Shown: in pieces, positions 1 through 11,860 of the stretch | Numbering within the stretch: position 1 is the stretch's first letter | Layout of the letters: the number at the start of each line of letters is the position of its first letter | From: Gammaproteobacteria bacterium | Lineage (GTDB): Bacteria > Pseudomonadota > Gammaproteobacteria > SZUA-140 | Length of the DNA stretch: 64,000 bases | Reading direction: 5' to 3' | NCBI GenBank assembly: GCA_046754065.1 | Contig: JBHHVB010000006.1 | Span: forward strand, 11,080-75,079 | Made by a program: the position numbers and the translations under genes | The notes under the pieces: model-generated | Databases searched by the model: none | Told to the model about the DNA's origin: nothing | What the model saw: the letters and a program-made list of their open reading frames with translations, nothing else

Positions 1-892
1 ACAGACTAACCAGACTAAATATTCCCGCCCAAACCGGAAGATAATCAAGCCAGCGCCTGTCAGGAGTGCGTCGAACCAACAAACTCCCCAGCGCGGTACC
101 CAAAAGAAATACCGCGAGAATGATGGCCAGCACATACTCAGTGCGTAACATAATCATGCCGTAAAGGCGTGTCCAGCCAATTTGCAATATTAACGCTGCT
201 GCGCCCAGGCCGGCATAAGGTATTAAGAATTTTAAACCTGGACGGACATATACTGTCTCTGTTACAGACGAAGGTTGTGTTAGACGAGACAGCGTAAAAG
301 CGGTAAATCCGATAAGAATTCCCAGAAGCGCTATCAAATTGATTGAAGCAGACCAGCCATAATTTGGCAATAACAGCAATGGAACCAGTGCACCTAATGC
401 TCCACCGAGTGTATTGAGTCCATAAATTTTTGCTAAAGAAAGTTGTGTAGACCTAACTGCCCTGAGAATCAGGGGAAAACTCGCTCCCATTGCGGTAGCA
501 GGTAATAACATCATCGCCAGTGCGCTAATAACTTCTGTACCAAGCCACGAATAATAAGCTGAGGAGGAATCAAGATGTGTAACCACTTCATCCACAAAAG
601 GCATAAGCTTAGGTAAGGCGAGCGCGTAAATCGCTATGCCTGTTTCTAATGCTGAGAACATTAAAAGCGGTGTGGCTACGTCGAACCGTCGTTGTGAGAT
701 TGCAAGACTACCAAGCCCCAGGCCAAACATAAATGCAGCAACTGTAATCACAACGCCAAAAATGCTAACCCCGAACTGAAGCGCAAACATTCTTGCCCAT
801 AGTACTTCATAGCTCAGCGCTGTTACGCCCGATAGGGTATATATGACAAGAAGAATTATTATCCAATAGGACTGCGGTGCTTTAGTCTGCAT
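1..892 (-). CDS. Partial CDS (N-terminal ~297 aa, runs off the window start): polytopic membrane domain resembling the N-terminal part of fused membrane/spermidine-synthase-like proteins
   Basis: Absent from the ORF track because it is open at the window edge. My translation from the ATG at 890-892 reads MQTKAPQSYWIIILLVIYTLSGVTALSYEVLWARMFALQFGVSIFGVVITVAAFMFGLGLGSLAISQRRFD... I checked the frame to about position 420 and found no stop. It is a series of hydrophobic helices. The family assignment comes from a recalled N-terminal pattern only. Confidence 0.5.
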   Translation of the reverse strand, partial: MQTKAPQSYWIIILLVIYTLSGVTALSYEVLWARMFALQFGVSIFGVVITVAAFMFGLGLGSLAISQRRFDVATPLLMFSALETGIAIYALALPKLMPFVDEVVTHLDSSSAYYSWLGTEVISALAMMLLPATAMGASFPLILRAVRSTQLSLAKIYGLNTLGGALGALVPLLLLPNYGWSASINLIALLGILIGFTAFTLSRLTQPSSVTETVYVRPGLKFLIPYAGLGAAALILQIGWTRLYGMIMLRTEYVLAIILAVFLLGTALGSLLVRRTPDRRWLDYLPVWAGIFSLVSL

Positions 893-947
893 TATCTATC
901 ACACCACATCTTTGAAAAAACCAGTCAGGTCTGCCCGAACCACCTTG

Positions 948-1331
948 TTATAATGGGAAATACCAGATAATTGCAGCAATTGCATGGGCAGCTGCTAACG
1001 TGACGCTCAAACCCGCACTTACCATATGCGGCACGAAGACCTGTTTGCCATACATCCCCATTGCTATCCCGAACCCGGCTGTCGTACATAACAAGACCAG
1101 AAGCGCGATACCCATAATAAAGAGGATCATATGCTTGGACTCATCACTGATCTCATGTTCTTTCAGTTTTTCATCAGCTAATTCGGTAAATCCCTGAATA
1201 ACCTGAGTACGCTCCTCGGGCGGCTTATTTGTCGCGAATGCGACACCTGCATTCAGGCTTATTAGCAAATAACCAACGACCAGGAGCCATTTACTGCCAA
1301 AGAATACTTTGCTGATCGTACTAGCCATCAT
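948..1331 (-). CDS. Hypothetical membrane protein (127 aa), last small gene of the oxidase cluster
   Basis: ORF with about three hydrophobic segments and no recognisable motif. It overlaps the upstream gene by 11 nt. Confidence 0.5.
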   Translation of the reverse strand: MMASTISKVFFGSKWLLVVGYLLISLNAGVAFATNKPPEERTQVIQGFTELADEKLKEHEISDESKHMILFIMGIALLVLLCTTAGFGIAMGMYGKQVFVPHMVSAGLSVTLAAAHAIAAIIWYFPL

Positions 1332-1560
1332 TTTTGTCTATTTTTTCTTCATCATCGCTTGGCTTATGGTTAGCAAATCGCCAGTAGAGAATAGCCATCA
1401 GGAAAAATGGTGTAAGAATCATGGCTACCAGAAACAGAAAAATTACGTACGGTGTTTCTATGGTAACATGAAAAAATTCGTAACTATCAAGCGAAGCCCA
1501 GGATATTGCAGGGAAAAACCCTGCAAATGCAACTAACATAATACGTATTGATCTAATCAT
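1321..1560 (-). CDS. Hypothetical small membrane protein (about 79 aa)
   Basis: The track ORF is 1321..1620. I prefer the Met at 1558-1560, 7 nt after the upstream stop at 1568. Two hydrophobic helices (IMLVAFAGFFPAISWA, VIFLFLVAMILTPFFLMAILYW). Confidence 0.45.
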   Translation of the reverse strand: MIRSIRIMLVAFAGFFPAISWASLDSYEFFHVTIETPYVIFLFLVAMILTPFFLMAILYWRFANHKPSDDEEKIDKNDG

Positions 1561-1567
1561 TATCGAG

Positions 1568-2638
1568 CTACCTTGTATTTTCTTTCCCTGCCGCAACATC
1601 TTTTGCACAACGAAACCCATAAAAATCTGAAGCGTAGTGCGGGAAAGAAAAATTACGATGATAAGACGAAGTAGAGAATGGGTCGCTTTTCCACGACCCC
1701 CCCCTTAGAACCTTGTACTCTGCATTCACCTCAATCAGATCTACTACTTTTAGTGCCTTATCTTGTGGATTCGTGACGGCTCCAATTTTACCTTTGAAAA
1801 TATCATCCGATGCGTCACTTCCCTCGTATTTATAAAAGGAATCTTGTGTCCATTCACTCACATTACCAGCCATATCCATCACGCCGTATGGACTTACGCC
1901 AGCAGGAAACATAGTGACATCGGTTGTGGAACCCATATTATAATAGGTATTCAAGCGTTTCGCGTCCATCTTATTTCCCCATGGCCAGCGGCGACCATCA
2001 GTCCCTCGCGCAGCCTTTTCCCATTCAGCCTCAGTGGGTAATCTTCCACCAATTGACTCGCAGTAATTGTTCCCGTCATACCAGGAAACCAACGTAACGG
2101 GATGCAACAGTTCTGATTGGTTAATTTTACCATTTCTCCAACTTGACGGAGGCCGATAGTCATTATTAGCGACAAATTTTGCGTACTGTACATTAGTTAC
2201 AGGGTACTTACTAATCTGATAGGCTGGTAACGTAACGACATGTTCGGGCCTGTTTTGCGGGTCAGCTAAACGATGATTAGTCCCCATCTTAAACTCACCT
2301 TCGGGAATAGTAATCATCGAGTCCAGTTCCTTCCATTGTACAGGTGAAATTAATTCGGACACTTCTGATAAGGCATATTTTTCATGCTCTAGTTTACCTG
2401 CTTCATGTTTTTGGTGTAGAAAAACATCTTCACCGGCAGCCCGAATATGCAGGTCCATTTCAGCGAGATCGTAAGTTGCCTTGCTTTTCATAGTTGCCAT
2501 TCCCTTATCCAGCATTCCTATGAGATGAATAGCAATGCCTAGAGCCAGGAATGCAACACAGGTAATAATCGTTGCGGCAAAGTATCGCTTACGTTTACTT
2601 CTATCCTCATCACTAATTGTAACTTCAGTTTTTAGCAT
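1568..2638 (-). CDS. Membrane-anchored FGE-sulfatase (SUMF1/NirV/EgtB-like) domain protein
   Basis: N-terminal TM helix (FAATIITCVAFLALGIAIHLIG) followed by hallmark FGE-sulfatase motifs: PEGEFKMGT, VTLPAYQISKYPVTNVQY, RLPTEAEWEKAARG, RGGSW and YGFRCA. The Cys pair used by true formylglycine-generating enzymes is absent between RGGSW and GFRCA. Confidence 0.8.
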   Translation of the reverse strand: MLKTEVTISDEDRSKRKRYFAATIITCVAFLALGIAIHLIGMLDKGMATMKSKATYDLAEMDLHIRAAGEDVFLHQKHEAGKLEHEKYALSEVSELISPVQWKELDSMITIPEGEFKMGTNHRLADPQNRPEHVVTLPAYQISKYPVTNVQYAKFVANNDYRPPSSWRNGKINQSELLHPVTLVSWYDGNNYCESIGGRLPTEAEWEKAARGTDGRRWPWGNKMDAKRLNTYYNMGSTTDVTMFPAGVSPYGVMDMAGNVSEWTQDSFYKYEGSDASDDIFKGKIGAVTNPQDKALKVVDLIEVNAEYKVLRGGSWKSDPFSTSSYHRNFSFPHYASDFYGFRCAKDVAAGKENTR

Positions 2639-2646
2639 CTGGAAAA

Positions 2647-3207
2647 TTACGGCTTGTTGTCTTTTAATTCCGGTGCCGTATTCTTTCCTTCCTTGCTCGC
2701 AAGAAGTTCGGCCTTTTCCGCTTGCGTAATATAGTTCGGCTTTTTATTTGGGCGCCCGTATATTTTCTTGATCATAACCTCACCCAGGAAGCCTCCAACC
2801 CAGGCTACTTCTACTGTAATAATCACCGGAAGAATCCAGTACAAAAACGGTAATGTTTCACCTTCGCCCGGGGGGGTAATAAATGTCAGGCTATAATAGC
2901 AGTAGCCACGAACAAGGACTGGTGCGAATCCGCTTAGTATTTTTCCACCGAGACCGTAGATCGATGTAACTACAAACCCGCCAATTAATGGAACGATGAA
3001 CATATCTACCATCAACATTGGCGTAAAATAACTCAGCAAATAGCCGGGTACTTTTATAACTTCAAGCTGGACACCTACCAGTGTATCACCAACGTAGATT
3101 ACAACCGCACCAGCCAATACTGAGACTGATACAAAAAAAATCTCTTTATATAAATTATTCACCTGTCGACTCGTCATCCGGATAGGCCTTTCCGGTAAGT
3201 TTTTCAT
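2647..3207 (-). CDS. Hypothetical polytopic membrane protein (186 aa; start may be Met-11 at 3177)
   Basis: ORF with 4-5 hydrophobic helices and a Lys-rich C-terminal tail. It overlaps the upstream cytochrome c gene. No motif recognised. Confidence 0.5.
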   Translation of the reverse strand: MKNLPERPIRMTSRQVNNLYKEIFFVSVSVLAGAVVIYVGDTLVGVQLEVIKVPGYLLSYFTPMLMVDMFIVPLIGGFVVTSIYGLGGKILSGFAPVLVRGYCYYSLTFITPPGEGETLPFLYWILPVIITVEVAWVGGFLGEVMIKKIYGRPNKKPNYITQAEKAELLASKEGKNTAPELKDNKP

Positions 3208-3664
3208 ATTCGGCTTTTTTTGTTTCCTCCAGGTACCAGTCTTCTACCTTCAAACTGGCAAGAAACGAGGCTAACGTCTTGCGTTCGTTCTCTGGTAAAT
3301 TGGAGTACGAGGGCATACGGTATTCTTTTTTAAGTCTGGACTGAAGTATAGACTGTGGATTTTTCGCCGAAAAATACGTGTACAACCAGTCCTCAGTTCG
3401 TATTGAACCGATTCCATCAAGAGCCGGGGCTGGTAACCCCCCTCTCATGAGGTCCTTTAGCGTCCAGAGAGAGTGGCATTCCCGGCAATTTTCCCGATTT
3501 ATTAATACTGCACCTTTTTCGCTTAAATCCTTAGAGGCTGTACTATAGTAGGGAATACCGGGATCTTTGTTTTTCTCGATAAAACTGTTTTTGAGATTGA
3601 GTCCGAAAAACAAAAGGACAACCATACCCAAAGTAGAATAAATTACTTTTTCACCTCTTTTCAT
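3155..3664 (-). CDS. Membrane-anchored monohaem c-type cytochrome
   Basis: N-terminal TM helix, a single CRECH haem-c motif and a candidate distal Met (YRMPSY). It is a clear paralogue of 10351..10965 (LDGIGSIRTEDWLYTYF versus LDGLGSRRSRDWIYTFL). Confidence 0.8.
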   Translation of the reverse strand: MKRGEKVIYSTLGMVVLLFFGLNLKNSFIEKNKDPGIPYYSTASKDLSEKGAVLINRENCRECHSLWTLKDLMRGGLPAPALDGIGSIRTEDWLYTYFSAKNPQSILQSRLKKEYRMPSYSNLPENERKTLASFLASLKVEDWYLEETKKAEYEKLTGKAYPDDESTGE

Positions 3665-3938
3665 GCTTGGCGGCTTTTCTTGCAGCCATTTCCTTTAACT
3701 CTTTTTCTCTTAGTTCCATCTGTTCCTTGTTGACTTGCTTGGCTTTTTCGAATTCTTCCGGTTCCATTTTATCCTTATCTTTTTCATCAAAAACAAGATA
3801 TTTTACATCCTCATCGAACTGTCCATGTTTACGAGCCCATAATATAGCAATGATGGACGCGAGTATGATACCGGCAGCCGCAACAATCCAAAGATAGATT
3901 GTCCAGCCATCGGGTAAAGATTGCATATATTCTTTCAC
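3651..3938 (-). CDS. ccoS: CcoS/FixS-like cbb3 oxidase maturation protein with a long charged C-terminal extension
   Basis: A single TM helix followed by ILWARKHGQFDEDVKYLVFDEKD. This matches the recalled CcoS signature W-A-x-[RK]-x-G-Q-F-D-[DE]...LFDD. The Lys/Glu-rich tail is longer than in typical CcoS proteins of 50-70 aa. Confidence 0.6.
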   Translation of the reverse strand: MKEYMQSLPDGWTIYLWIVAAAGIILASIIAILWARKHGQFDEDVKYLVFDEKDKDKMEPEEFEKAKQVNKEQMELREKELKEMAARKAAKHEKR

Positions 3939-3952
3939 GTTACATTTACTCC

Positions 3953-4270
3953 TTAAAAAAGGTGGCCAAACAGTAATTGAGCTGCACCAAATATTGACGC
4001 GGCAATAACACCTAGCACTAACCAGATAAACATTATTCGTTCACCTGTTTTCATTCCTTTACCTGATTTAACACCTTCTCTTTTAGCGCTGAGAAAAAAA
4101 TTATATAAAATCGCTGAAAATACAATTATGCCAAACACCATAAATATAAATATCCCGATGCTATACTCCTGACTGCGCATACTTTCTATAGTAAACGCGT
4201 CAGTTTCTGCAAATTCCTGGATTTTCAGTATTCTACTAAAATCCGTAGCAAGAGATAGTTTGGTCAACAT
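3953..4270 (-). CDS. Hypothetical small membrane protein (105 aa)
   Basis: ORF with two to three hydrophobic helices, in the same orientation and tightly packed within the oxidase cluster. Confidence 0.45.
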   Translation of the reverse strand: MLTKLSLATDFSRILKIQEFAETDAFTIESMRSQEYSIGIFIFMVFGIIVFSAILYNFFLSAKREGVKSGKGMKTGERIMFIWLVLGVIAASIFGAAQLLFGHLF

Positions 4271-4324
4271 CAGGGAAAGATTAAATTCCGGAAGCTTAAA
4301 CAGAGGAGGGGTACGAAAAAGATA

Positions 4325-4353
4325 TCGCCCCGTAGGGCGACATCTTTTTTTCT
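4325..4353. terminator. GC-rich hairpin with flanking A/T runs inside the oxidase cluster (possible bidirectional intrinsic terminator or attenuator)
   Basis: The stem is TCGCCC (4325-4330) pairing with GGGCGA (4335-4340), with loop CGTA. It is followed by a T8 run on the plus strand and preceded by AAAAAGATA, which reads as TATCTTTTT on the minus strand. Confidence 0.4.
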
Positions 4354-4376
4354 AACTTGCTTGAAACATCCAAGTG

Positions 4377-4490
4377 CTATTTATCATCCTTATCGTAGTT
4401 ATCTATAAAAAAACTATAGATAAACGGGAATATAAACACAACCAAAATTGCTACAAGCATTGCCAGTGGCGGATTATCTACGTCTAACAT
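4377..4490 (-). CDS. Candidate 37-aa single-TM peptide
   Basis: My translation is MLDVDNPPLAMLVAILVVFIFPFIYSFFIDNYDKDDK. The ATG at 4488-4490 lies 14 nt after the upstream stop and is preceded by GGGAGAAAGGA. It is too short for the ORF track. Confidence 0.4.
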   Translation of the reverse strand: MLDVDNPPLAMLVAILVVFIFPFIYSFFIDNYDKDDK

Positions 4491-4504
4491 ATCCTTTCTC
4501 CCTC

Positions 4505-5131
4505 TTAATGAACGTCGTGTCTTGGTTGCCAGGTACTAGGTGGTAAACGCTTGATCACTAACGTTACCGCGATACAGAAGTAGGTCACATAGAATACATC
4601 AATTGTGTACCCTTTATCCCACCATGGTTGTATTCTCACCCGAACACCGTTTGCATCAGGATCTGTCTCGAAATTAGCTAATACGACCTTATCACCAACT
4701 ACAGTATATTCAGCTAAATTTACGCCAGAATTCTTGAGCTCGATAATCTGATCCTTAATCATCCGCAGATCGTCCATCTCCAAGGGGTGACGTTCTTGCA
4801 AAGCAGCCCATTCACTTCCCCGAGACTTTACCGTATCGACGATATACTTCATCGCAGCGGCATCGTCGGTCGCATTCGTCACTTCAGGAGAGTCCATCAA
4901 CGCAACGTATTCTTCGTAGATCGAAGCCTGTGGACGTTGCCCCCATAGCGGTGCGGTAATAAGGAAAGCAGTGATAATCGTAATCGCCATCAACCAAACA
5001 ACTGGAATCGGCACACGGTTGTTATCCTCAGTGATCCCACCCAGGCTCTCACCTTCCCAAACTCTTTTAAAGCTTTCTATTTCATCATCATGCGAGAGCG
5101 TGATGAGTGGATTATCTAATTTCCAAGCCAT
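4505..5131 (-). CDS. Haem-less membrane protein with a CcoP N-terminal (FixP_N)-like segment
   Basis: VWEGESLGGITEDNNRVPIPVVWLMAITIITAFLITAPLWG resembles the recalled FixP_N pattern (W-D-G-I-x-E-x-N-N-P-L-P-x-W-W followed by a TM helix). There is no CxxCH anywhere. A second TM helix sits near the C-terminus. Confidence 0.45.
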   Translation of the reverse strand: MAWKLDNPLITLSHDDEIESFKRVWEGESLGGITEDNNRVPIPVVWLMAITIITAFLITAPLWGQRPQASIYEEYVALMDSPEVTNATDDAAAMKYIVDTVKSRGSEWAALQERHPLEMDDLRMIKDQIIELKNSGVNLAEYTVVGDKVVLANFETDPDANGVRVRIQPWWDKGYTIDVFYVTYFCIAVTLVIKRLPPSTWQPRHDVH

Positions 5132-5144
5132 TAGTCATCCCCCC

Positions 5145-6095
5145 TTATTTGAGGCTTAAAACAAAGTCAATCAACTTCTTAATTTCGGTATCTTTTGCGT
5201 ACTCAGGAACTTCTGGTGGATAGATACGCTTACCTTCTACGTATTCATCGTAGTCCTTGCGCCATTGATCGAAATTAATAGCCTGACCGTTAGCATCTGT
5301 TTGACCCCACAAATAATCAAACCTTGGCATGATAGAATGTGGCTGCACCAAACGCGGATTGAAAAAGTGCATCAACATCCATTCTCTGGAGGAGTTTCTG
5401 GAACCTACATGCATTAAATCAGGCGCTTTTCTATCTGATCCGAATGCTGTAGGTGATTCACCATTAAAATCGCCCAGACGCGGTGGAACACCGAAGTACT
5501 GCCAGTCTTGAGTTTGCTCAGGCAGTAGTGTGTGACACCACCAGCATTGTTCACGAACGAAAATGATTTTACCTGCACCAATTTCGAAGGTATTCGCTTC
5601 ACCTGCGGTAGCTAAAACACCATCAGGTGTCCATCCACGTGTTGCGGTAGCGTTTTCAATGTAAGGAAACTCCTTACCATTGACCGTACCATGACCCACA
5701 ACAAAGACTGCACCTGAAGATTCGCTTGCAGAACCTACCTGGCCTTGTGAAGTTGTTAACTCCGCAGATTCAGTACCAAGAATTCTTGGATGACGTATAC
5801 CATTTGGAAACGGAATTCCCGCCTTGTATACATATGCATCCATCGTATCCATGGCAGCACCAGTTTTAGGGTCCTTATTCAATCTAACGGTCAGAGGTTT
5901 CCCGTCACCGTTGTTGAATGGATCCTCATAACTGAAGCCTGAAATACGGCCGTATGAAAGTTCTTTTGTGATACCAATTTCTGAGGTACCCACCCCTACG
6001 ATAGTCAAGCTCGGCATATACAAGGTAATCATCATCGATCCACCCAGTGCCAGCCCGAACAAGCGTACACCTATTTTATATTCACGAAATGCCAC
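5145..6095 (-). CDS. ccoO: CcoO/FixO-like monohaem cytochrome c subunit with a ~150-aa insertion after the TM anchor
   Basis: N-terminal TM helix. The C-terminal part reads REQCWWCHTLLPEQ...FGSDRKAPDLMHVGSRNSSREWMLMHFFNPRLVQPHSIMPRF, matching the recalled CcoO core (GC-x-x-CHSQ, GS-x-R-x-GPDL, P-x-S-x-MP). It is 316 aa, compared with about 200 aa for typical CcoO. Confidence 0.8.
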   Translation of the reverse strand: MAFREYKIGVRLFGLALGGSMMITLYMPSLTIVGVGTSEIGITKELSYGRISGFSYEDPFNNGDGKPLTVRLNKDPKTGAAMDTMDAYVYKAGIPFPNGIRHPRILGTESAELTTSQGQVGSASESSGAVFVVGHGTVNGKEFPYIENATATRGWTPDGVLATAGEANTFEIGAGKIIFVREQCWWCHTLLPEQTQDWQYFGVPPRLGDFNGESPTAFGSDRKAPDLMHVGSRNSSREWMLMHFFNPRLVQPHSIMPRFDYLWGQTDANGQAINFDQWRKDYDEYVEGKRIYPPEVPEYAKDTEIKKLIDFVLSLK

Positions 6096-6139
6096 TTTTG
6101 TTACCCTCCCTTATCCGGTTAACAATTGGTAGTTATCGA

Positions 6140-7546
6140 TTAACGTTCGTATGCAAGCTCATGTGGCATACGACCAGCAGGTACGATGGTACCTTCTCTA
6201 GCGGTCATCCACATATTGTAGAGCCATACTACATTACCAGTGAACACCATAGTGCCTCCTACCCAGCGAGCAATCATGTACGGGTGTTCTGCGATTACTA
6301 CGTCGATATATGGCACCTCATAAATCTTCGCTGCACCCTGAATCAGACCTGCAATCGTAATTGAGATCCAATAGGTACAGAAACCGATCAATAGGAACCA
6401 GAAGTGGAAGTTAGCTAATGCCAGTGAATACAGCTTACGACGCATAACTGTTTGTAAACCATAATACACGGCAGCACCTTCCAGGAAGGTGGAGAAGCCC
6501 AGTAATGCCAAATGCGCATGAGCAACAATCCAGCCAGTACCATGAATATACCAGTTAATAGCACGAGTCTGTTGAAAACCACCCTGCATATTTAGTGGAA
6601 TAGCTAAAAGCACACCTACCATGGTAAAGCGCACTTCGATATTGTTTACAAAGTAATGCCATTTACCCGTCATTGTTAACAGCAGGTTTGATACGAATGC
6701 AATCGCAGGCACAAGAATCAATACACCTTCAACTGATGCAAATGACTTGGTCCACTCAGGAAGTGGAGATGACATAATATGGTGAGCCGCCGGTGTCGAA
6801 TAGAACACAACAACAGACCAGAAATGAACGTGTCCAATTCTGTGAGAGTATAGCGGGTTACCCGTAATCTTCGGAATTGTGTAGTACGCGATTGCCGCAG
6901 CAACTGGTGTAATCCAGAGACCCAGGATGTTATGCGCGTGCCACCATGTGAGATACGCTTCAGTCAAGCCACTCAACTGAAAGTATTCTGGAAGATTACC
7001 AACCAGTACCACGATACCAACCATGAAACAGCCAGCCCCGAAGAACCAGTTAGTGGTATAGATACCCTGGGTTCTACGATGGATAATGGTCATCCAAACG
7101 TTGATACCTAAAGGCGCTACCATAAAGAATAGAACGAACAGATCAATAAACCATGGAAAGTCTGTGTACTCACGACCGGACGTCATCCCGCACCATAACA
7201 AAGTCAGTGCTAGTGATAAACCGACGTTGAACAGTAAGCAGTTCCAAAGACCCAGCTTCTCTGACCACAACTTGGTGTTACCTAGTGCTGGTGTGATATA
7301 CATCATCGCCATAGCAAATGCCATGGTAATCCAACCAAAGATTACTGCGTGCACATGCACCTGACGCATATGACCAAATGCAAACATTTCCGATCCTGTC
7401 ACAAAGTCCGGAAATGCCAGTTTAGCCGCATTAAAGGATCCGAGACCGGTCCCTATAACAAACCATATAATTGACGAAAACCCCCAATATACCGCTGAAC
7501 TACCTTTTGGTATATCTTCGTTTCTCGCGAAAAGGTACTTAAACAT
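6140..7546 (-). CDS. ccoN: cbb3-type (C-family) haem-copper oxidase catalytic subunit I
   Basis: About 12 TM helices. Motifs seen: RQVHVHAVIFGW (low-spin haem His), SGREYTDFPWFID, WWHAHN (CuB His), VHFW...VVFYSTPAAHH (Tyr five residues before the HH pair, as for the C-family cross-linked Tyr) and VAHAHLALLG (the HxH haem ligands). Confidence 0.9.
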   Translation of the reverse strand: MFKYLFARNEDIPKGSSAVYWGFSSIIWFVIGTGLGSFNAAKLAFPDFVTGSEMFAFGHMRQVHVHAVIFGWITMAFAMAMMYITPALGNTKLWSEKLGLWNCLLFNVGLSLALTLLWCGMTSGREYTDFPWFIDLFVLFFMVAPLGINVWMTIIHRRTQGIYTTNWFFGAGCFMVGIVVLVGNLPEYFQLSGLTEAYLTWWHAHNILGLWITPVAAAIAYYTIPKITGNPLYSHRIGHVHFWSVVVFYSTPAAHHIMSSPLPEWTKSFASVEGVLILVPAIAFVSNLLLTMTGKWHYFVNNIEVRFTMVGVLLAIPLNMQGGFQQTRAINWYIHGTGWIVAHAHLALLGFSTFLEGAAVYYGLQTVMRRKLYSLALANFHFWFLLIGFCTYWISITIAGLIQGAAKIYEVPYIDVVIAEHPYMIARWVGGTMVFTGNVVWLYNMWMTAREGTIVPAGRMPHELAYER

Positions 7547-7625
7547 AATTTTCGACCCCCCTCGTATCCTACAATTTTATTACTAAATACATAATTTTGA
7601 TGACCAAATTCACAAACTGCAATTC

Positions 7626-7715
7626 TTAATGTTTACCTGGCATCAACAAATACCAAGCGAACCACATACTTGAGAATGCTAGTACTAAACAAAAGCCGGT
7701 TGCGATTGCTGACAT
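7626..7715 (-). CDS. Candidate 29-aa single-TM peptide immediately upstream of ccoN
   Basis: My translation is MSAIATGFCLVLAFSSMWFAWYLLMPGKH. A GGAGGG Shine-Dalgarno sequence lies 6 nt upstream of the ATG at 7713-7715. It shares an AWY[LI]L motif with the peptide at 11945..12040. Confidence 0.5.
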   Translation of the reverse strand: MSAIATGFCLVLAFSSMWFAWYLLMPGKH

Positions 7716-7752
7716 ATTCTTCCCTCCGAAAAAAATTCAAATATTAATTTTA

Positions 7753-8052
7753 TTAACCGTGTGCGCCGGCACTTTCAGCCTTTGCTTCCAGCTCACCGTG
7801 GCGACTCAACGCGACCATCGTAATGATCATGAAGGCCACCCCAAAAACAATCATCGACCAGTTTACAAAACCGTTGAAAGAAGTTGGATAATACTGCTGA
7901 GCTCCCCATCCCCCCCACATTTCAAATTTTCCGCGCCCCAAGGCACACATCATTGCGGCGCCAAACACACTACCGTTTCCCATGCCAGTTGTGACCCCGG
8001 CAATCAGACCTACCCAAAATGTCTTAGCGAATGACAATCTGTTATTTCCCAT
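7753..8052 (-). CDS. Hypothetical membrane protein (99 aa), first gene of the oxidase cluster
   Basis: ORF with two to three Gly-rich hydrophobic helices. A 500-bp non-coding region lies upstream. Confidence 0.5.
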   Translation of the reverse strand: MGNNRLSFAKTFWVGLIAGVTTGMGNGSVFGAAMMCALGRGKFEMWGGWGAQQYYPTSFNGFVNWSMIVFGVAFMIITMVALSRHGELEAKAESAGAHG

Positions 8053-8245
8053 GTGGCTCTCCCGTTCGCGATATCAAATTATTTGGCTTGTAACTGAACA
8101 ATGCAGTGAAATTAATCGAGTTATAATTTCGGTTTACATTGATTCAGAGTATTTATTCTTATCTCTCTACTTGAGTGGCGGCAGTTTTACATATACTTCC
8201 ATATACGTCAAGCCTTTATAAAGCAATAACAGCAGGCGGAAAAAC

Positions 8246-8274
8246 ATATTATTCTTGTCAAGTATGGGCGTCAA
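8246..8274 (-). promoter_or_regulatory. Candidate sigma-70 promoter for the oxidase cluster
   Basis: The minus strand reads TTGACG (8274-8269), a 17-nt spacer, then TAATAT (8251-8246), about 190 nt upstream of the first gene. This is a pattern match only. Confidence 0.25.
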
Positions 8275-8490
8275 AAATAAAAAAATATTTACATTACCTA
8301 AAGTTACACAAACCACAAGGTATCAAGCCTGCAACGCCCTAAGCTAAACCTTAAATATTTAAAATAAAAAAATAATTTGGTTAAATCCACCCGCTGCAAG
8401 TTATCCATAAACAAACATATCCACGCGCCATGAAATTACGTTAGAATTATGCCATTTAAAAACGGGTTGAGCGTGTCTTGTATAAGAAAA

Positions 8491-8534
8491 TGCCAATTTT
8501 GGCAGCAAGATTCAAAAGTTTTGAATTTAATCAA
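8491..8534. promoter_or_regulatory. Cluster of three dyad-symmetric elements (candidate regulator binding sites)
   Basis: TGCCAA-tt-TTGGCA at 8491-8504, the perfect palindrome ATTCAAAA-g-TTTTGAAT at 8510-8526, and TTGAATTTAATCAA at 8521-8534 (TTGA-N6-TCAA, an FNR/CRP-family-like box). All lie just upstream of the ATG at 8552. Confidence 0.3.
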
Positions 8535-8551
8535 TCTTTTTTACATAAAAT

Positions 8552-8788
8552 ATGCAAATCTCGATGAATAGCCGATACCCATTTCAGATCAAGGAAATCA
8601 TTATCTATGCGATGGTTGCGTTCGCATCTCTTGTGATACTTGGATATTCGGTACATATGTTGATTGGTGACATTGTCAGCCCCTCGACTGAAAAATTAGC
8701 TATCATCATCGCCTGCGTTGCTGGAGCCGCTGTCATCGCGTTTATGGCGTGGGACGTTGTAAAACAAAGAAAAAACAGAATGGGATAG
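8552..8788 (+). CDS. Hypothetical two-TM membrane protein (78 aa)
   Basis: ORF with two hydrophobic helices and a basic C-terminus. It is the only plus-strand gene between the two cytochrome clusters. Confidence 0.4.
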   Translation: MQISMNSRYPFQIKEIIIYAMVAFASLVILGYSVHMLIGDIVSPSTEKLAIIIACVAGAAVIAFMAWDVVKQRKNRMG

Positions 8789-8892
8789 CAGAAACGCTCA
8801 GGAACCGGACAGCGCGTCGATCTATTCTAGTAATTAACAAGTAATAGGGCAAAGCCGGACAGGAAACAATCTATTCCCACAAAGCCAGCAGG

Positions 8893-9345
8893 CTATTTAT
8901 AGATATTAAGCCTCGAGCATAGGTCCTTGTAATCGGCCTTACTGACAAACTGACCACGATGGAAAACGAACTGGCGCTTTTTACCCGTAATATCCATACC
9001 AGTCAAACCAAAAGATTTTCCCGCATAATCGGGATGAAAACGCAAATCTTTCGCTAAATCGACTTTATCGCCACCGTTTAGGTTTAACGCAACATTTTGC
9101 CTTGATACCTCCAGACTTTTAGGTGAAGAAGGTAACACCAGTAATCTGGTCAAAATGCGGTTCATACCAATGAAAAATATAAAACTTGCCAGAAAGAACA
9201 ACACGTAAGCAAGGGTTTGCCCACCGCTATACCATTGCTTGAAACAGAATGACAATAGCAGTAATACTGTTGGCACATAAAGCACCAAATCCCACAAAAT
9301 GCCTTTTTTATCTTTTACGAGTTGATAACTTGAGACTTCACCCAT
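8893..9345 (-). CDS. Hypothetical membrane protein (two TM helices plus a ~80-aa soluble C-terminal domain)
   Basis: ORF starting 3 nt after the stop of the thioredoxin-like gene. It is the last gene of a tightly coupled four-gene unit. Confidence 0.5.
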   Translation of the reverse strand: MGEVSSYQLVKDKKGILWDLVLYVPTVLLLLSFCFKQWYSGGQTLAYVLFFLASFIFFIGMNRILTRLLVLPSSPKSLEVSRQNVALNLNGGDKVDLAKDLRFHPDYAGKSFGLTGMDITGKKRQFVFHRGQFVSKADYKDLCSRLNIYK

Positions 9346-9348
9346 GAC

Positions 9349-9846
9349 CTAACCCGCAGCTAAAGCATTTTGAATCACTGCATCCAGTTCGCCATATAAC
9401 AAACGCCCAGCCTGCTTGAACTGGACAACATTATTCTCGTCAATCACAAATGTCCAGGGATCACCCTGAATCTGATACGCGATAAAGGCTGCGGTATTCT
9501 GGTACTGATCCATATGTAAAAACAGAATATCTTCGCCATATTTATTGATTAGTGCCTTCAGCATCTGTAATTGCTTATCACAAACCGTACAGTGTCCTGG
9601 TGTAGCAAATTCAAGAACGACAGGCTTTCCAGTGGCTAATGCATCATCCAGCGAATATTGGTACATCCGTTCATCAGGTTGCCTGTATGTGGTAATACGA
9701 CTAAAGTCACCATCAACATCGGCAAGGGTTTTGGTTTTTAGGCTGGGTGCTTTCATCCCGACTCTCAAGCTGCTTCCCTCGGGCTTAAAGTCACAGCCAC
9801 TTAACAACAATGCTGTAAAAACAATTATTAGAAGCGCTAATCTCAT
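9349..9846 (-). CDS. Thioredoxin-fold (TlpA/ResA/Sco-like) lipoprotein with a CxxC motif
   Basis: I prefer the Met at 9844-9846, giving MRLALLIIVFTALLLSGC, a lipoprotein signal with an LSGC lipobox. That start forms an ATGA overlap with the upstream stop. The redox motif reads FATPGHCTVCDKQL. Confidence 0.65.
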   Translation of the reverse strand: MRLALLIIVFTALLLSGCDFKPEGSSLRVGMKAPSLKTKTLADVDGDFSRITTYRQPDERMYQYSLDDALATGKPVVLEFATPGHCTVCDKQLQMLKALINKYGEDILFLHMDQYQNTAAFIAYQIQGDPWTFVIDENNVVQFKQAGRLLYGELDAVIQNALAAG

Positions 9847-10376
9847 ATTTGTTTTTCCCACCCCATACATGTTCTGAATATATTATACCCCCAAATGCAG
9901 TTGGCCAATAATACCATTGAACCAAACATACCCATCATAGCCAGAATAGGGCGAATTATAGCTTCAACCTGTTCAGGTGATGAATGAACACTGGCATTCC
10001 CACCCAACACACCAGCAGTGGTAAACAAAACCACCATACCAATGAGCCCAAAATTATGAATCCAGAAGTGGGCTATAACCAACTTAAGACTAAATATAGG
10101 CCGTTTTACCAATCTGGGAATGATAAAATAGATCGCGCCAAAGATAGCCATTTCCACCCAACCCAGCAGATTTATATGGGTATGCGCCCGAACAATTAAA
10201 TTACCATGCATCCTGTGGTCAACAAAGTGACGAAATTCAGCGATACCGCCCATCATCGCTCCCCAGGAAAAGCCAATAATGCTATATATTACACATGCAT
10301 AGATAAACCACAGCGTGTATCTAGTATAAACTTTGTCCTGCACCCAGGGCTCATTCATTTCGCTGTTGTCCCTCAC
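9843..10376 (-). CDS. Mini haem-copper-oxidase-like membrane protein, homologous to only the C-terminal helices (about IX-XII) of CcoN
   Basis: An ungapped comparison with the CcoN in this window gives about 21 identities over 67 positions. The mini protein segment is LIVRAHTHINLLGWVEMAIFGAIYFIIPRLVKRPIFSLKLVIAHFWIHNFGLIGMVVLFTTAGVLGG. The CcoN segment is GWIVAHAHLALLGFSTFLEGAAVYYGLQTVMRRKLYSLALANFHFWFLLIGFCTYWISITIAGLIQG. The HxH, LLG, FSL/YSL, HFW and AG..GG positions are retained. The CuB ligands and the helix-II His are absent. Confidence 0.75.
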   Translation of the reverse strand: MRDNSEMNEPWVQDKVYTRYTLWFIYACVIYSIIGFSWGAMMGGIAEFRHFVDHRMHGNLIVRAHTHINLLGWVEMAIFGAIYFIIPRLVKRPIFSLKLVIAHFWIHNFGLIGMVVLFTTAGVLGGNASVHSSPEQVEAIIRPILAMMGMFGSMVLLANCIWGYNIFRTCMGWEKQI

Positions 10377-10965
10377 CCATTATTTCATTTTGCTTATCTG
10401 ACGATCTGACATCCTTGTACTTTTCTTTCCACCCTTCAGGTGCCCAGGTTCCAATCATCTCATCAATAAATTCAGACCGGCCCTCTGGCGGTAGCGGTGC
10501 GGTCGATGCCCCTCTTTCGGCTCTTAATCCGGAAAGAAAGGCTGCTATCAGTTGAAGATCCTCATCTGGCATATCGGCCACATAACCCGCTTCTTTTCCT
10601 GATCCATGGTCGAGGGTTACGGTGTTGTGTTCTTCCTCATATGCGGACTCCGGGTCCGTCAAAAAGGTATATATCCAGTCTCGGCTTCTGCGCGAACCCA
10701 ACCCGTCTAAAGACAGCCCCATACTCGTCCCACTTCCCATGGCTCGATGGCACGAGGAACAACGTCCCTTTCTAAAGAGAATTGATCCCTTTTTTCCTTC
10801 CTCTGAAAAATCGTAATGGGTTTTACTGGCAAACATCGGTTTATCTGTAGTAAGGCGTATTGTTTCCATCGCGACGTATGCGATGAAACACACCCCGATA
10901 AACGCAATGATAATACCAAATAATATTTTTTCACCTTGCTTTAGAGGCTGTTTAGCTTTTGCCAT
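10351..10965 (-). CDS. Membrane-anchored monohaem c-type cytochrome (paralogue of 3155..3664)
   Basis: N-terminal TM helix, a single CSSCH motif and a candidate Met ligand (VADMPDE). It shares LDGxGSxRxxDWxYT and FLxxL blocks with the 169-aa cytochrome. Its 3' end overlaps the mini-HCO gene. Confidence 0.8.
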   Translation of the reverse strand: MAKAKQPLKQGEKILFGIIIAFIGVCFIAYVAMETIRLTTDKPMFASKTHYDFSEEGKKGSILFRKGRCSSCHRAMGSGTSMGLSLDGLGSRRSRDWIYTFLTDPESAYEEEHNTVTLDHGSGKEAGYVADMPDEDLQLIAAFLSGLRAERGASTAPLPPEGRSEFIDEMIGTWAPEGWKEKYKDVRSSDKQNEIMGEGQQRNE

Positions 10966-11033
10966 GAGGTAGACTTTCTATAATGTTTTGGGAGATGGAA
11001 GGCGTTTTGAGTCGTATAAAACCCGGAGAAAAC

Positions 11034-11058
11034 AAAGGCGGGCATAATACCCGCCTTT
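11034..11058. terminator. Intrinsic terminator downstream of the dihaem cytochrome gene
   Basis: The stem is AAAGGCGGG pairing with CCCGCCTTT, with a 7-nt loop. On the minus strand the hairpin is followed by TTTGTTTTCTCC. Confidence 0.6.
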
Positions 11059-11080
11059 TAAAAAAGATACAACTTGATTT

Positions 11081-11860
11081 TTAGTGATCTTCGAACTGCC
11101 TGTGTGCCCTTGGACGACCCATTTCGCCTGGACTCTGGGTTCTGGAACCTGTGGAACTCAGGAAAGTCGCAAGGTCCCTGATATCATTATCATCCAAAAG
11201 CTGAGCAACTTTTTGCATGGCTTCATGAGGATCATTGTGTCTTGCACCACTTCTCCAGTTTTTAAGCTGATTGGTGATGTATACATATTTCTGTAAACCA
11301 ATCAACGGGAAGATCGGATCAACACCACGACCATTGTAACCATGACAAGACCGGCAAGCAGGTATCCCTTTGTCGGTATCTCCGTAATTAACAAGCGCTT
11401 TGCCTCGGTACGAAACACCAATTTCTGTACCACCCGCTTCCAGCGCCTTCAAATCAGATGGTTGAAAATCAGCATCCCAGGTGCTAACAAAGGCGGCAAT
11501 GTCGATTCTATCCTGCTCTGACAATCCCAACGCATTGGTATTCATAACAAACATGGTTGTATCCTGGCGCTTACAGGTTGAATGGTCTTCAGGATTTGAA
11601 CAGGTGCCAAAATCAGTTAATTGCTTGACAATGAACTGATAAACCTGACCGACCAGGCGTGGCGTTCCTAAAGCATCATTACCTTCGCCATGCTCGCCAT
11701 GGCATGAAGTACAGGCCGGTACATCGCCCTTACCATTCATGAAAATATTTTTACCGTTGCCAGGATTAGCGTGCGATAAATCAACCGCACTAGCAGAAGT
11801 AGATATTACAAAACCAATAACTATTGCGGTACTCGGTATTAACTTGGCTAGAAGCGACAT
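11081..11860 (-). CDS. Periplasmic dihaem c-type cytochrome (c4-like)
   Basis: Signal peptide (AIVIGFVISTSASA) and two haem motifs, CTSCH and CRSCH, in two repeated class-I-like halves. Confidence 0.85.
   Translation of the reverse strand: MSLLAKLIPSTAIVIGFVISTSASAVDLSHANPGNGKNIFMNGKGDVPACTSCHGEHGEGNDALGTPRLVGQVYQFIVKQLTDFGTCSNPEDHSTCKRQDTTMFVMNTNALGLSEQDRIDIAAFVSTWDADFQPSDLKALEAGGTEIGVSYRGKALVNYGDTDKGIPACRSCHGYNGRGVDPIFPLIGLQKYVYITNQLKNWRSGARHNDPHEAMQKVAQLLDDNDIRDLATFLSSTGSRTQSPGEMGRPRAHRQFEDH

Follow-up and report, generated by a model that had tools for sequence, protein, structure and literature searches.

A non-canonical cbb3-type oxidase locus with conserved accessory genes in a gammaproteobacterium, related to gene clusters of iron oxidisers and Tenderiales

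Among the described loci for cbb3-type (C-family) haem-copper oxidases, the closest to the one analysed here come from the Tenderiales and from iron-oxidising bacteria. For Candidatus (Ca.) Tenderia electrophaga, the order of the cbb3-1 and cbb3-2 genes has been listed gene by gene (Eddie et al. 2022, bioRxiv 10.1101/2022.05.06.490989, Fig. 2B); the same authors describe a conserved 26-gene region of the Tenderiales, refer to its oxidases as 'partial' and consider the region 'a sort of alternative complex IV'. They also report that the region is conserved in some freshwater iron oxidisers and that a second copy of the truncated CcoN lies further downstream in Tenderia. The Tenderia region had previously been found to be syntenic with one in Mariprofundus and to be expressed at a very high level (Eddie et al. 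2017, PMC5371394). Here we describe a related locus in a 64,000-nucleotide stretch of a gammaproteobacterial genome of the SZUA-140 lineage (assembly GCA_046754065.1, contig JBHHVB010000006.1, positions 11,080 to 75,079 of the forward strand; hereinafter, the window). A preceding examination of the letters and open reading frames, made without database searches (hereinafter, the sequence-only reading), had singled out positions 948-8052 of the window as a non-canonical cbb3-type oxidase locus of roughly 13 genes.

In iron oxidisers, 'proximal' and 'distal' cbb3 forms with different subunit compositions have been distinguished (PMC7029218, PMC8788666, PMC10734462); as used in these papers, the two terms denote the CcoN subtrees of Ducluzeau et al. 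2008. Both forms are highly expressed in Sideroxydans ES-1, where the proximal ccoNO genes are up-regulated on Fe(II) (PMC8788666). The sole predicted cbb3 oxidase of Ferrovum JA12 consists of subunits I and II only, with subunit III missing, and the co-located cytochromes have been proposed to replace it (Ullrich et al. 2016, PMC4725956). According to a review (PMC8398457), the dihaem subunit of a cbb3 oxidase may be regarded as redundant, both in electron transfer and in catalysis. The sequence-only reading had supposed that the window oxidase is probably additional to a canonical one elsewhere in the genome; such a pairing holds for Tenderia and Sideroxydans ES-1, but Ferrovum JA12 has yielded no more than the two subunits named above.

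To compare the locus with its relatives, we scanned one genome per species, which yielded 395 genomes with a CcoN relative, and took the best 80 loci; these come from Chromatiales-, Thiotrichales- and Tenderia-like Gammaproteobacteria, Gallionella, Sideroxydans, Nitrotoga, Ferrovaceae and one Steroidobacteraceae metagenome-assembled genome (MAG). Every protein of the window was used as a tblastn query against the 80 loci for presence and order. Proteins were assigned to families by Pfam and NCBIfam profile searches, transmembrane helices and CXXCH motifs were located by a simple hydropathy and motif scan, structures of single chains were predicted with AlphaFold2, and the Protein Data Bank (PDB) was searched for similar folds with Foldseek. 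The adjacent sequence was taken from L083, a Logan contig that matches window positions 1-11331 at 99.965% identity and runs past the left edge of the window.

All 13 listed open reading frames (ORFs) and a hairpin were recovered by ORF translation on the minus strand of 948-8052, each where the sequence-only reading had placed it, and most of the products are membrane proteins by the hydropathy scan. Orthologues of each of these genes, in the same order, are present in 58-80 of the 80 related loci, and the full 13-gene order is found in almost every locus that is long enough to hold it. In a subset of loci (L025, L034, L035, L039, L059 and L073; also L045, L046, L053 and similar ones) modules are shuffled but adjacent, none of the rearranged ones being more than about 10 kb away from ccoN. 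Co-conservation of the small and accessory genes with ccoNO in dozens of genomes, even where modules are rearranged, bears out the proposal that the oxidase has an accessory set of its own. The gene cluster is confirmed as real, and its conservation is far from what chance would give. Judged from these sequence comparisons, the locus probably encodes a cbb3 variant that functions as an O2 reductase and has an accessory set dedicated to it, a conclusion to which we would assign a probability of roughly 0.78, with a much lower confidence in the assignments of individual subunits. Oxidases of this kind are characteristic of lithotrophs that live on Fe(II) or solid electron donors, namely Zetaproteobacteria, Gallionellaceae, Ferrovaceae, Tenderiales and related uncultured Gammaproteobacteria.

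The catalytic subunit, CcoN (6140-7546, minus strand), is a C-family subunit I of 468 amino acids that matches the COX1 family (E=2e-72) and aligns with the whole 12-helix canonical chain of Pseudomonas stutzeri (3MK7_A; 208 bits, about 31% identity). The alignment with 3MK7_A upholds the earlier description of this protein as a bona fide C-family CcoN, with six histidine ligands and a tyrosine at the cross-link position. The haem b ligands His64 and His345 correspond to P. stutzeri His60 and His347, the haem b3 ligand His343 to His345, and the CuB ligands His205, His255 and His256 to His207, His257 and His258. Tyr249, located in helix VII six residues before the HH pair, falls on Tyr251, the C-family cross-link position, and the Ca-site glutamate is retained as Glu126. 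The six metal-ligand histidines are invariant within the clade to which this CcoN belongs. The scores to cbb3 CcoN chains are in the range of 160-208 bits, compared with 29.5 bits to NorB (4XYD), the only non-cbb3 match in the PDB. With the curated ccoN equivalog of NCBIfam, TIGR00780, the protein reaches 220 bits, the cutoff being 583, and is, therefore, a divergent member of the family.

A further change concerns the surroundings of haem b3. Gln321 (codon 6584-6586) aligns with P. stutzeri Glu323 and is invariant in the clade. Glutamine occupies this position in 47 of 102 representative CcoNs, and all representatives that are at least 55% identical to the P. stutzeri protein carry glutamate; the residue could serve as a simple sequence marker that separates the non-canonical from the canonical groups. 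The canonical Glu323 forms a hydrogen bond with the proximal histidine of haem b3; a review (PMC8398457, citing Melin et al. 2016) holds it responsible for the low b3 potential and for the coupling of electron to proton transfer. Going by the alignment, the presence of glutamine should alter the potential of haem b3. In a crude neighbour-joining tree (midpoint-rooted, with neither a nitric oxide reductase outgroup nor bootstrap values), the window clade branches off on a long stem within the Gln-type non-canonical CcoNs, and the canonical Glu clade is separate from these. By elimination, this clade is likely to be the 'proximal' one.

Relatives of the window CcoN with 76-93% identity number in the hundreds and come from gammaproteobacterial and betaproteobacterial MAGs, mine-drainage metagenomes and Zetaproteobacteria. 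The identity is 76-78% to Zetaproteobacteria, including Mariprofundus ferrooxydans, 82-85% to sequences of Gallionellaceae, Sideroxydans and Ferrovaceae, and 84-85% to Ca. Tenderia MAGs. An exhaustive phmmer search of 1.84 billion representatives clustered at 50% identity retrieved a single full-length representative of the clade, the next relative being only 39% identical, which makes the clade both tight and isolated. CcoN is under strong purifying selection, and the combination of at least 76% identity inside the clade with at most 39% outside it suggests that CcoN is very strongly constrained, that it has spread laterally among lithotrophs, or both. Across the same loci, the accessory proteins share just 40-60% identity; for CcoN the figure is 76% or more in all three classes (Gamma-, Beta- and Zetaproteobacteria).

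The gene directly downstream of ccoN encodes an elongated CcoO of 316 amino acids (5145-6095, minus strand). It matches the FixO family (E=1e-16; 61 bits against a Pfam cutoff of 29.6), and scores 58 bits with the corresponding NCBIfam equivalog, TIGR00781, for which the cutoff is 200.65. The FixO match is limited to residues 174-266 and the CcoO chains in the PDB align at residues 174-280 only; the first of these limits indicates that the haem domain follows an insertion of about 120 amino acids. The protein is accordingly laid out as an N-terminal anchor, the insertion (about residues 60-170) and a canonical monohaem domain in which the single CXXCH motif (CWWCH, residues 184-188), the SIMP motif with the methionine ligand and the GSDRKAPDL motif are conserved. 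In the AlphaFold2 model, the insertion forms a compact periplasmic alpha/beta domain (predicted local distance difference test, pLDDT, 87-98). Foldseek with the whole chain found no match for the insertion in the PDB (best E=1.3), the domain not having been searched alone. All listed CcoO relatives are about 305-321 amino acids long and contain the insertion. Next to the CcoN of the nearest outgroup (P0122, 39% identical) there is a CcoO of normal length that is free of the insertion and is fused to an extra cytochrome; no shared accessory genes are visible on this 5.9-kb contig. Another outgroup sequence, P0121, sits on a 1.8-kb contig, which is too little for gene context, and the cluster names for the context of the nearest outgroups are those of Anaerolineae and Armatimonadota MAGs only.

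After ccoO comes a gene for a haem-less protein of 208 amino acids (4505-5131, minus strand). The match of its N-terminal part to FixP_N, the anchor of CcoP, is below the threshold for the window protein (E=0.018), and 40 of 50 orthologues match the same family, with a best E-value of 1.9e-5. The motif scan found no CXXCH in it. The AlphaFold2 model (pLDDT 75) has a transmembrane helix at residues 42-62, a helical periplasmic domain in place of the cytochrome domains and a second transmembrane helix at residues 175-194. The similarity to CcoP is thus confined to the anchor, and on the basis of these sequence features the protein appears to be a haem-less relic of the CcoP membrane anchor. The family has an invariant motif, WExExLGGxTEDNNRxPxPVVW, which is followed by a transmembrane helix; the TEDNN portion may contain the counterpart of the proton-channel residue Glu49 of P. 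stutzeri CcoP. There are 1586 homologous clusters, and every source name shown for them is 'hypothetical protein'. Neither phmmer nor a profile search nor Foldseek with the AlphaFold2 model (best E=2) returned a relevant PDB match. The only other candidate for a dihaem subunit nearby, a dihaem cytochrome encoded at 11081-11860, is not a CcoP: it has a signal-peptide-like N-terminus and no FixP_N match, and scores 34 bits with TIGR00782.

The FixQ (CcoQ) family was not matched by any small ORF in either Pfam or NCBIfam, which, together with the absence of CXXCH from the 208-residue protein, agrees with the earlier observation that the locus has no dihaem CcoP and no recognisable CcoQ. Three other small proteins are encoded in the same operon. 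The first gene of the operon encodes a membrane protein of 99 amino acids (7753-8052, minus strand), orthologues of which are found directly upstream of ccoN in 78 of the 80 loci; it has an invariant motif, TGMGNGSVFGAAxMCxLGRGxFxxWGG, substitution rates of 0.31/0.24/0.59 at the three codon positions, and no Pfam match above threshold. Between this gene and ccoN, a peptide of 29 amino acids with a single transmembrane segment (7626-7715, minus strand) is encoded in 67 of the 80 loci (tblastn), with the motif LAFSSM...WY.LMP and codon-position rates of 0.37/0.17/0.59; it is a candidate small subunit analogous to CcoQ or CcoM. The last gene, which follows that of the 208-residue protein in 76 of the 80 loci, specifies a single-transmembrane peptide of 37 amino acids (4377-4490, minus strand; rates 0.37/0.22/0.62). 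Any of the 29-, 37- and 99-residue proteins may be a CcoQ analogue. In all eight small or uncharacterised ORFs that were subjected to the codon test, including the two shortest, the substitution rates rank 3 > 1 > 2, from which it follows that these ORFs are real genes under purifying selection, and the orthologue alignments of the small proteins contain sharply conserved motifs.

A terminator-like hairpin (4314-4352, minus strand; stem-loop at about 4320-4345) lies between the genes for the 37-residue peptide and the 105-residue protein that comes next. It comprises an A-tract, a GC-rich stem of 11 bp, a UACG loop and a U-tract, and has a folding free energy of -34.6 kcal/mol (z = -4.5), which none of 200 shuffled sequences equals. 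An equivalent hairpin with a T-run is found near the stop codon of the 37-residue peptide in 53 of 75 loci, at a distance of about 10-80 nt and, in three cases, near 160-185 nt. The stems differ between loci yet stay complementary, as in GCCGCTC/GAGCGGC, GCCACAC/GTGTGGC and GTCGCCC/GGGCGAT, and the rearranged loci break exactly at this point. Because the hairpin covaries and coincides with the rearrangement breakpoint, we distinguish a core structural operon, from the 99-residue to the 37-residue protein, and a second unit that begins with the 105-residue protein; the hairpin is probably a terminator or attenuator that parts the structural from the accessory genes. In one sub-clade (L045, L046, L053, L063, L067, L071, L072, L076 and L080), the genes for the 99- and 29-residue proteins no longer precede ccoN and instead follow the gene for the 127-residue protein, the 105-residue gene overlaps that of the 37-residue peptide, and the hairpin is lost. 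The relocation and the loss of the hairpin in this sub-clade represent a coordinated change of operon architecture.

The second unit starts with a protein of 105 amino acids with two transmembrane helices (3953-4270, minus strand; 73 of the 80 loci), in which only about 80 C-terminal residues are conserved; in rearranged loci, this gene travels with the module that contains a truncated CcoN (see below). Next comes a CcoS/FixS-like maturation protein of 95 amino acids with one transmembrane segment (3651-3938, minus strand; 74 loci), which scores 24.5 bits with FixS (cutoff 23.1) and 14.3 bits with the NCBIfam equivalog TIGR00847 (cutoff 28.35), and contains a conserved QFDED motif and a long acidic/basic tail. 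The following gene encodes a membrane-anchored monohaem class-I cytochrome c of 169 amino acids (3155-3664, minus strand; Cytochrom_C, 1.8e-7; 75 loci) with one CXXCH motif at residue 60 and an N-terminal transmembrane segment. This cytochrome is a candidate for the electron-entry partner of the oxidase or for a substitute of CcoP. The possibility that it is a CcoO-like protein was considered and dropped, the similarity being limited to a sub-threshold FixO match (E=0.054) and a BLAST match of 16 residues.

Further along the second unit are a membrane protein of 176-186 amino acids with three or four transmembrane helices (2647-3207, minus strand; 64 loci), which has conserved Gly/Glu motifs and no match in Pfam or NCBIfam, and a membrane-anchored periplasmic protein of 356 amino acids that combines one N-terminal transmembrane segment with an FGE-sulfatase fold (1568-2638, minus strand; 5e-56; 63 loci). 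In the PDB, the best relative of the latter is ToxD (7SPQ), followed by OvsA, EgtB, pFGE and FGE. The description of ToxD as a Ser/Thr kinase explains why the Tenderia orthologue is annotated as a kinase. The C-terminal part of the protein carries the family motif RGGSWKxDPFST, and the only cysteines in the domain are Cys193 and Cys344, which would correspond to the structural disulfide positions of human FGE. The fold is that of FGE, and the Cu-binding cysteine pair of true formylglycine-generating enzymes (FGEs) is missing; a role as an FGE-type Cu(I)-binding chaperone was rejected for lack of this pair. In the literature that was searched, no association of FGE with cbb3 oxidases is reported. 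Profile searches thus agree with the earlier identification of a FixP_N-like haem-less protein, a CcoS-like protein, a monohaem cytochrome c and an FGE-sulfatase-domain protein in the locus.

The unit continues with a small membrane protein (1321-1620, minus strand; ORF of 99 amino acids; 60 loci; codon test) and a protein of 127 amino acids with three transmembrane helices (948-1331, minus strand; 58 loci). The longest-ORF starts of 1321-1620 and 2647-3207 overlap the preceding genes by 53 nt. The true start of the former is probably Met21, where conservation begins (79 amino acids, 1321-1560), and that of the latter probably lies 10 codons later (176 amino acids), both in agreement with the gene calls on L083. 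Two conserved histidines of the 127-residue protein are located within or next to predicted transmembrane helices, and there are weak, sub-threshold matches to DUF4079 and prokaryotic cytochrome b561; given its sequence, this protein may bind haem. The other products of 948-8052 are transmembrane proteins that match no family.

The locus had been taken to be confined to about 13 genes between 948 and 8052, and this delimitation does not hold: on L083 the cluster continues off the left edge of the window, and on the right it reaches position 11860. At the left edge, positions 1-895 (minus strand) encode the N-terminal 298 amino acids of a fused MFS/spermidine-synthase-like membrane protein of 869 amino acids, which is complete on L083 (10440-13049), scores 90.6 bits with NF037959 (cutoff 40) and is 47% identical to its L003 orthologue. 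On L083 it is followed by a CcoG-like polyferredoxin of 436 amino acids and then by a 146-residue protein. These three genes come after that of the 127-residue protein in 45-55 related loci (55 for the fused protein in an 883-residue form and 49 for the CcoG-like one). The CcoG-like protein contains the Fer4_5 and Fer4_18 domains and scores 99.9 bits with TIGR02745 (cutoff 316.7), indicative of a divergent relative. With its gene about 2.7 kb outside the left edge, the earlier statement that the window has no CcoG, CcoH or CcoI is literally true, and the absence of CcoG is an artefact of the window edge; neither ccoH nor ccoI was seen in the cluster. In its relatives, the fused MFS/spermidine-synthase protein carries a TPR tail, and in about 55 genomes its gene keeps this position, with the accessory genes of the oxidase on one side and the CcoG-like gene on the other. 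We know of no link of this fused family to oxidase biogenesis.

To the right, an upstream module (8552-11860) is adjacent in 44 of the 80 loci, and several betaproteobacterial loci carry it as an insertion that parts the genes for the 37- and 105-residue proteins. It includes a divergently oriented gene for a 78-residue protein with two transmembrane helices (8552-8788, plus strand; codon test), found in the same position and orientation in 39 of the loci, and a gene for a 150-residue protein, also with two transmembrane helices (8893-9345, minus strand; 44 loci; no Pfam match). The adjacent gene encodes a thioredoxin-fold lipoprotein with a CTVC motif and an LSGC lipobox (9349-9870, minus strand; AhpC-TSA 7.7e-7, Thioredoxin 2.2e-5; 44 loci) and a weak match to DsbE; on these matches, it is probably a TlpA/DsbE-like periplasmic reductase for assembly. 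A truncated CcoN paralogue of 177 amino acids, which covers just the last four transmembrane helices (9843-10376, minus strand), corresponds to positions 306-427 of the COX1 profile (1.8e-14) and 336-460 of TIGR00780, is 29% identical to residues 320-449 of CcoN and keeps the HxH of helix X; formation of a haem-b-binding dimer is one possibility. Its gene is translationally coupled, through a 26-nt overlap, to that of a membrane-anchored monohaem cytochrome c of 204 amino acids (10351-10965, minus strand; Cytochrom_C 4.9e-7; CXXCH at residue 69; N-terminal transmembrane segment), and the pair is present in 42-44 loci. The 204-residue cytochrome is a paralogue of the 169-residue one (E=1e-13).

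The module ends with the dihaem cytochrome already mentioned (11081-11860, minus strand), a periplasmic c4-type protein of 259 amino acids with two Cytochrom_C stretches and CXXCH motifs at residues 50 and 169, which is probably a homologue of Cyc1 of iron oxidisers. The cyc1 gene is located in or next to the cluster in Tenderia (PMC5371394) and in Sideroxydans ES-1 (Slit_2657; PMC8788666). Directly after the dihaem cytochrome gene there is a second terminator-like hairpin (11034-11058, minus strand) with an 11-bp stem, 6 GC pairs and a T-rich tail. Its presence suggests independent transcription of this gene, as would be in keeping with the very high expression of cyc1 reported in Tenderia. 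Beyond 11860, the window contains housekeeping genes (fpg, mgtE, ptsP, rapZ, hprK, rpoN, recG and spoT); beside the cluster, there is also a 485-residue ORF (12557-14014, plus strand) without a Pfam family at E <= 1e-5. A promoter scan of the window gave fewer sites than expected from shuffled sequences, and FNR/Anr-like sites in the window were not above chance (8 against 5.4 expected). An FNR/Anr-like half-palindrome with one mismatch, TTGAATTTAATCAA (8521-8534), lies within the AT-rich stretch of 500 bp that precedes the core operon.

Taken together, these features suggest how the predicted oxidase could work. The core operon would give rise to an O2 reductase composed of CcoN, CcoO, the CcoP relic and three small transmembrane subunits. 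CcoN would carry haem b, the haem b3-CuB centre and the His-Tyr cross-link; the haem-c domain of CcoO would bear the extra periplasmic domain; the 208-residue protein would retain only the membrane-anchor module of CcoP; and the three small proteins would stand in for CcoQ and CcoM. Electrons would pass from the Cyc1-like dihaem cytochrome to the haem c of CcoO, either directly or via the anchored 169-residue cytochrome, and from there through haem b to the b3-CuB site, where O2 would be reduced. Maturation would be supplied by the CcoS-like protein, the thioredoxin-like protein and the CcoG-like cupric reductase encoded outside the window, and the 105-, 186-, 79- and 127-residue proteins, the FGE-fold protein and the fused MFS/spermidine-synthase protein would be further conserved membrane or periplasmic components.

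Several considerations weigh against this interpretation. The literature searched holds no biochemical data for any member of the group. The small proteins, the 208-residue protein and the 169-residue cytochrome are placed among the putative subunits by synteny only. Given how far CcoN falls below the curated ccoN cutoff (220 against 583 bits), its functional equivalence to canonical CcoN is an assumption, and the replacement of glutamate by glutamine affects a residue to which, in the canonical enzymes, a part in the coupling of electron and proton transfer is ascribed. A part of the genes for the FGE-fold, MFS/spermidine-synthase and truncated-CcoN proteins in oxidase function is putative. 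Finally, the correspondence of this CcoN to the labels used in the literature (complex IV-1 and IV-2, cbb3-1 and cbb3-2, proximal and distal) is presumptive.

It is possible, although we are inclined to doubt it, that only ccoN and ccoO, perhaps along with the gene for the 208-residue protein, form the enzyme, and that their neighbours are assembly factors or an independent membrane system, such as one built on the truncated CcoN and a cytochrome, that has only regulation or genomic history in common with the oxidase. The conserved terminator that parts the core genes from the rest is in line with such a division, as are the modules that have moved or been inverted relative to ccoNO (L025, L034, L059 and others), the upstream module that is not beside ccoN in roughly half of the loci, and the status of CcoS-like and CcoG-like genes, which are known as assembly factors and not as subunits. 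The rearranged modules nevertheless stay within about 10 kb of ccoN, the block from the 105-residue to the 127-residue protein occurs in nearly every locus of sufficient length, and the very short single-transmembrane peptides encoded inside the core operon resemble typical small oxidase subunits.

At the opposite extreme, the whole region of about 22-26 genes could specify one 'alternative complex IV' supercomplex that unites the oxidase, the modules of truncated CcoN and cytochrome, and the FGE-fold protein, as proposed for the Tenderiales by Eddie et al. 2022. In its favour, most of the products are membrane proteins and the modules are co-conserved across three proteobacterial classes. We consider it unlikely: the upstream module is adjacent in 44 of the 80 loci only, and terminator-like sites separate the units. 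That the enzyme is mainly a nitric oxide (NO) reductase or an NO-detoxifying enzyme, an intermediate between the C-family and the NO reductases with unusual subunits that reflect such chemistry, is highly improbable, since the relatedness of C-family oxidases to the cytochrome c-dependent NO reductase (cNOR), the NorB structure 4XYD as the sole (and, at 29.5 bits, weak) non-cbb3 match in the PDB, the reduction of NO by canonical cbb3 oxidases as well (PMC8398457) and the position of the window CcoN among deep Gln-type lineages of the crude tree are countered by the invariance of the three CuB histidines and the cross-link tyrosine in the clade, the 160-208 bits to cbb3 CcoNs, the composition of the only predicted cbb3-type oxidase of Ferrovum JA12 (subunits I and II; PMC4725956) and the high expression of the region in aerobic lithotrophic growth (PMC5371394, PMC8788666).

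Within the preferred interpretation, an O2-reducing cbb3 variant with its dedicated accessory set, a more specific and quite tentative scenario can be outlined. The cluster might encode a structurally distinct C-family holoenzyme that comprises a CcoN with a Gln-tuned b3 centre, a CcoO with a new periplasmic docking domain, a CcoP relic that keeps the entrance of the proton channel, new single-transmembrane subunits, a dedicated periplasmic assembly factor with the FGE fold, and coupled modules of truncated CcoN and cytochrome, the entire assembly being specialised for carriers of iron- or electrode-derived electrons such as Cyc1. If this were true, neutrophilic iron oxidation and electroautotrophy would have this complex as their true terminal oxidase, and its subunit architecture would be unlike that of any solved cbb3 oxidase.

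For specialists in iron oxidisers, the existence and conservation of the cluster are already known from genome comparisons. In neutrophilic iron oxidisers, Ferrovum of acid mine drainage and cathode-oxidising Tenderiales, this type of oxidase serves as the terminal electron sink or as one of several; these organisms are relevant to the cycling of iron and carbon and to bioelectrochemistry. No member of the type has been purified. The present analysis brings out several features that are amenable to experiment, namely the replacements of CcoP and CcoQ, the additional domain of CcoO, the loss of the glutamate near haem b3 and the terminator that parts structural from accessory genes. It also corrects annotations, in that the 'serine/threonine kinase' has an FGE fold and the 'partial oxidase' has a complete CcoN.

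Among the known systems, cNOR (NorBC) has in NorB a distant homologue of CcoN, and its partner is a membrane-anchored monohaem cytochrome c, with no dihaem subunit. The cross-link tyrosine, to our knowledge, is absent from cNOR. In contrast, the window CcoN has the CuB histidine triad and this tyrosine, its partner is a CcoO of the FixO family and not NorC, and the score to NorB is only 29.5 bits. With the canonical CcoNOQP(M) enzymes (P. stutzeri 3MK7 and 5DJQ, Rhodobacter capsulatus 6XKW) the window oxidase shares the catalytic core, the metal ligands, the tyrosine, the Ca-site glutamate and the haem-c domain of CcoO, and its assembly would likewise depend on CcoS-like and CcoG-like proteins. 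It differs from them by a CcoN identity of about 31%, the lack of dihaem CcoP and CcoQ, the insertion in CcoO, the glutamine, the extra conserved membrane genes and the absence of visible ccoH and ccoI. The non-canonical cbb3 oxidases of iron oxidisers have the same lack of ccoP and ccoQ, co-located c-type cytochromes and an adjoining cyc1; the organism that the window comes from is not known to oxidise iron.

The closest correspondence is with the cbb3-1 and cbb3-2 region of the Tenderiales, in which the order is the same: dihaem cytochrome, monohaem cytochrome, truncated CcoN, thioredoxin, hypothetical proteins, CcoN, CcoO, hypothetical proteins, monohaem cytochrome, a hypothetical protein, the FGE-fold protein ('serine threonine protein kinase' there), small transmembrane proteins and CcoG. 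The window together with L083 reproduces this published order, which is also shared by the Ca. Tenderia MAG loci L024 and L066; the window belongs to a different, uncultured gammaproteobacterium and ends before CcoG and the second truncated CcoN. The sequence-only reading had presented the locus as a distinct variant. It is distinct, with conserved accessory genes of its own, but it is not newly recognised, having been reported by Eddie et al. (2017, 2022) and in the papers on iron oxidisers; as for its being an already characterised and named subtype, this is half true, the cluster having been described and the enzyme being biochemically uncharacterised. What the present analysis adds to the work of Eddie et al. 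is the relic of the CcoP anchor, the insertion in CcoO, the replacement of glutamate by glutamine near haem b3, the terminator between the structural and accessory genes, and the true FGE fold of the 'kinase'.

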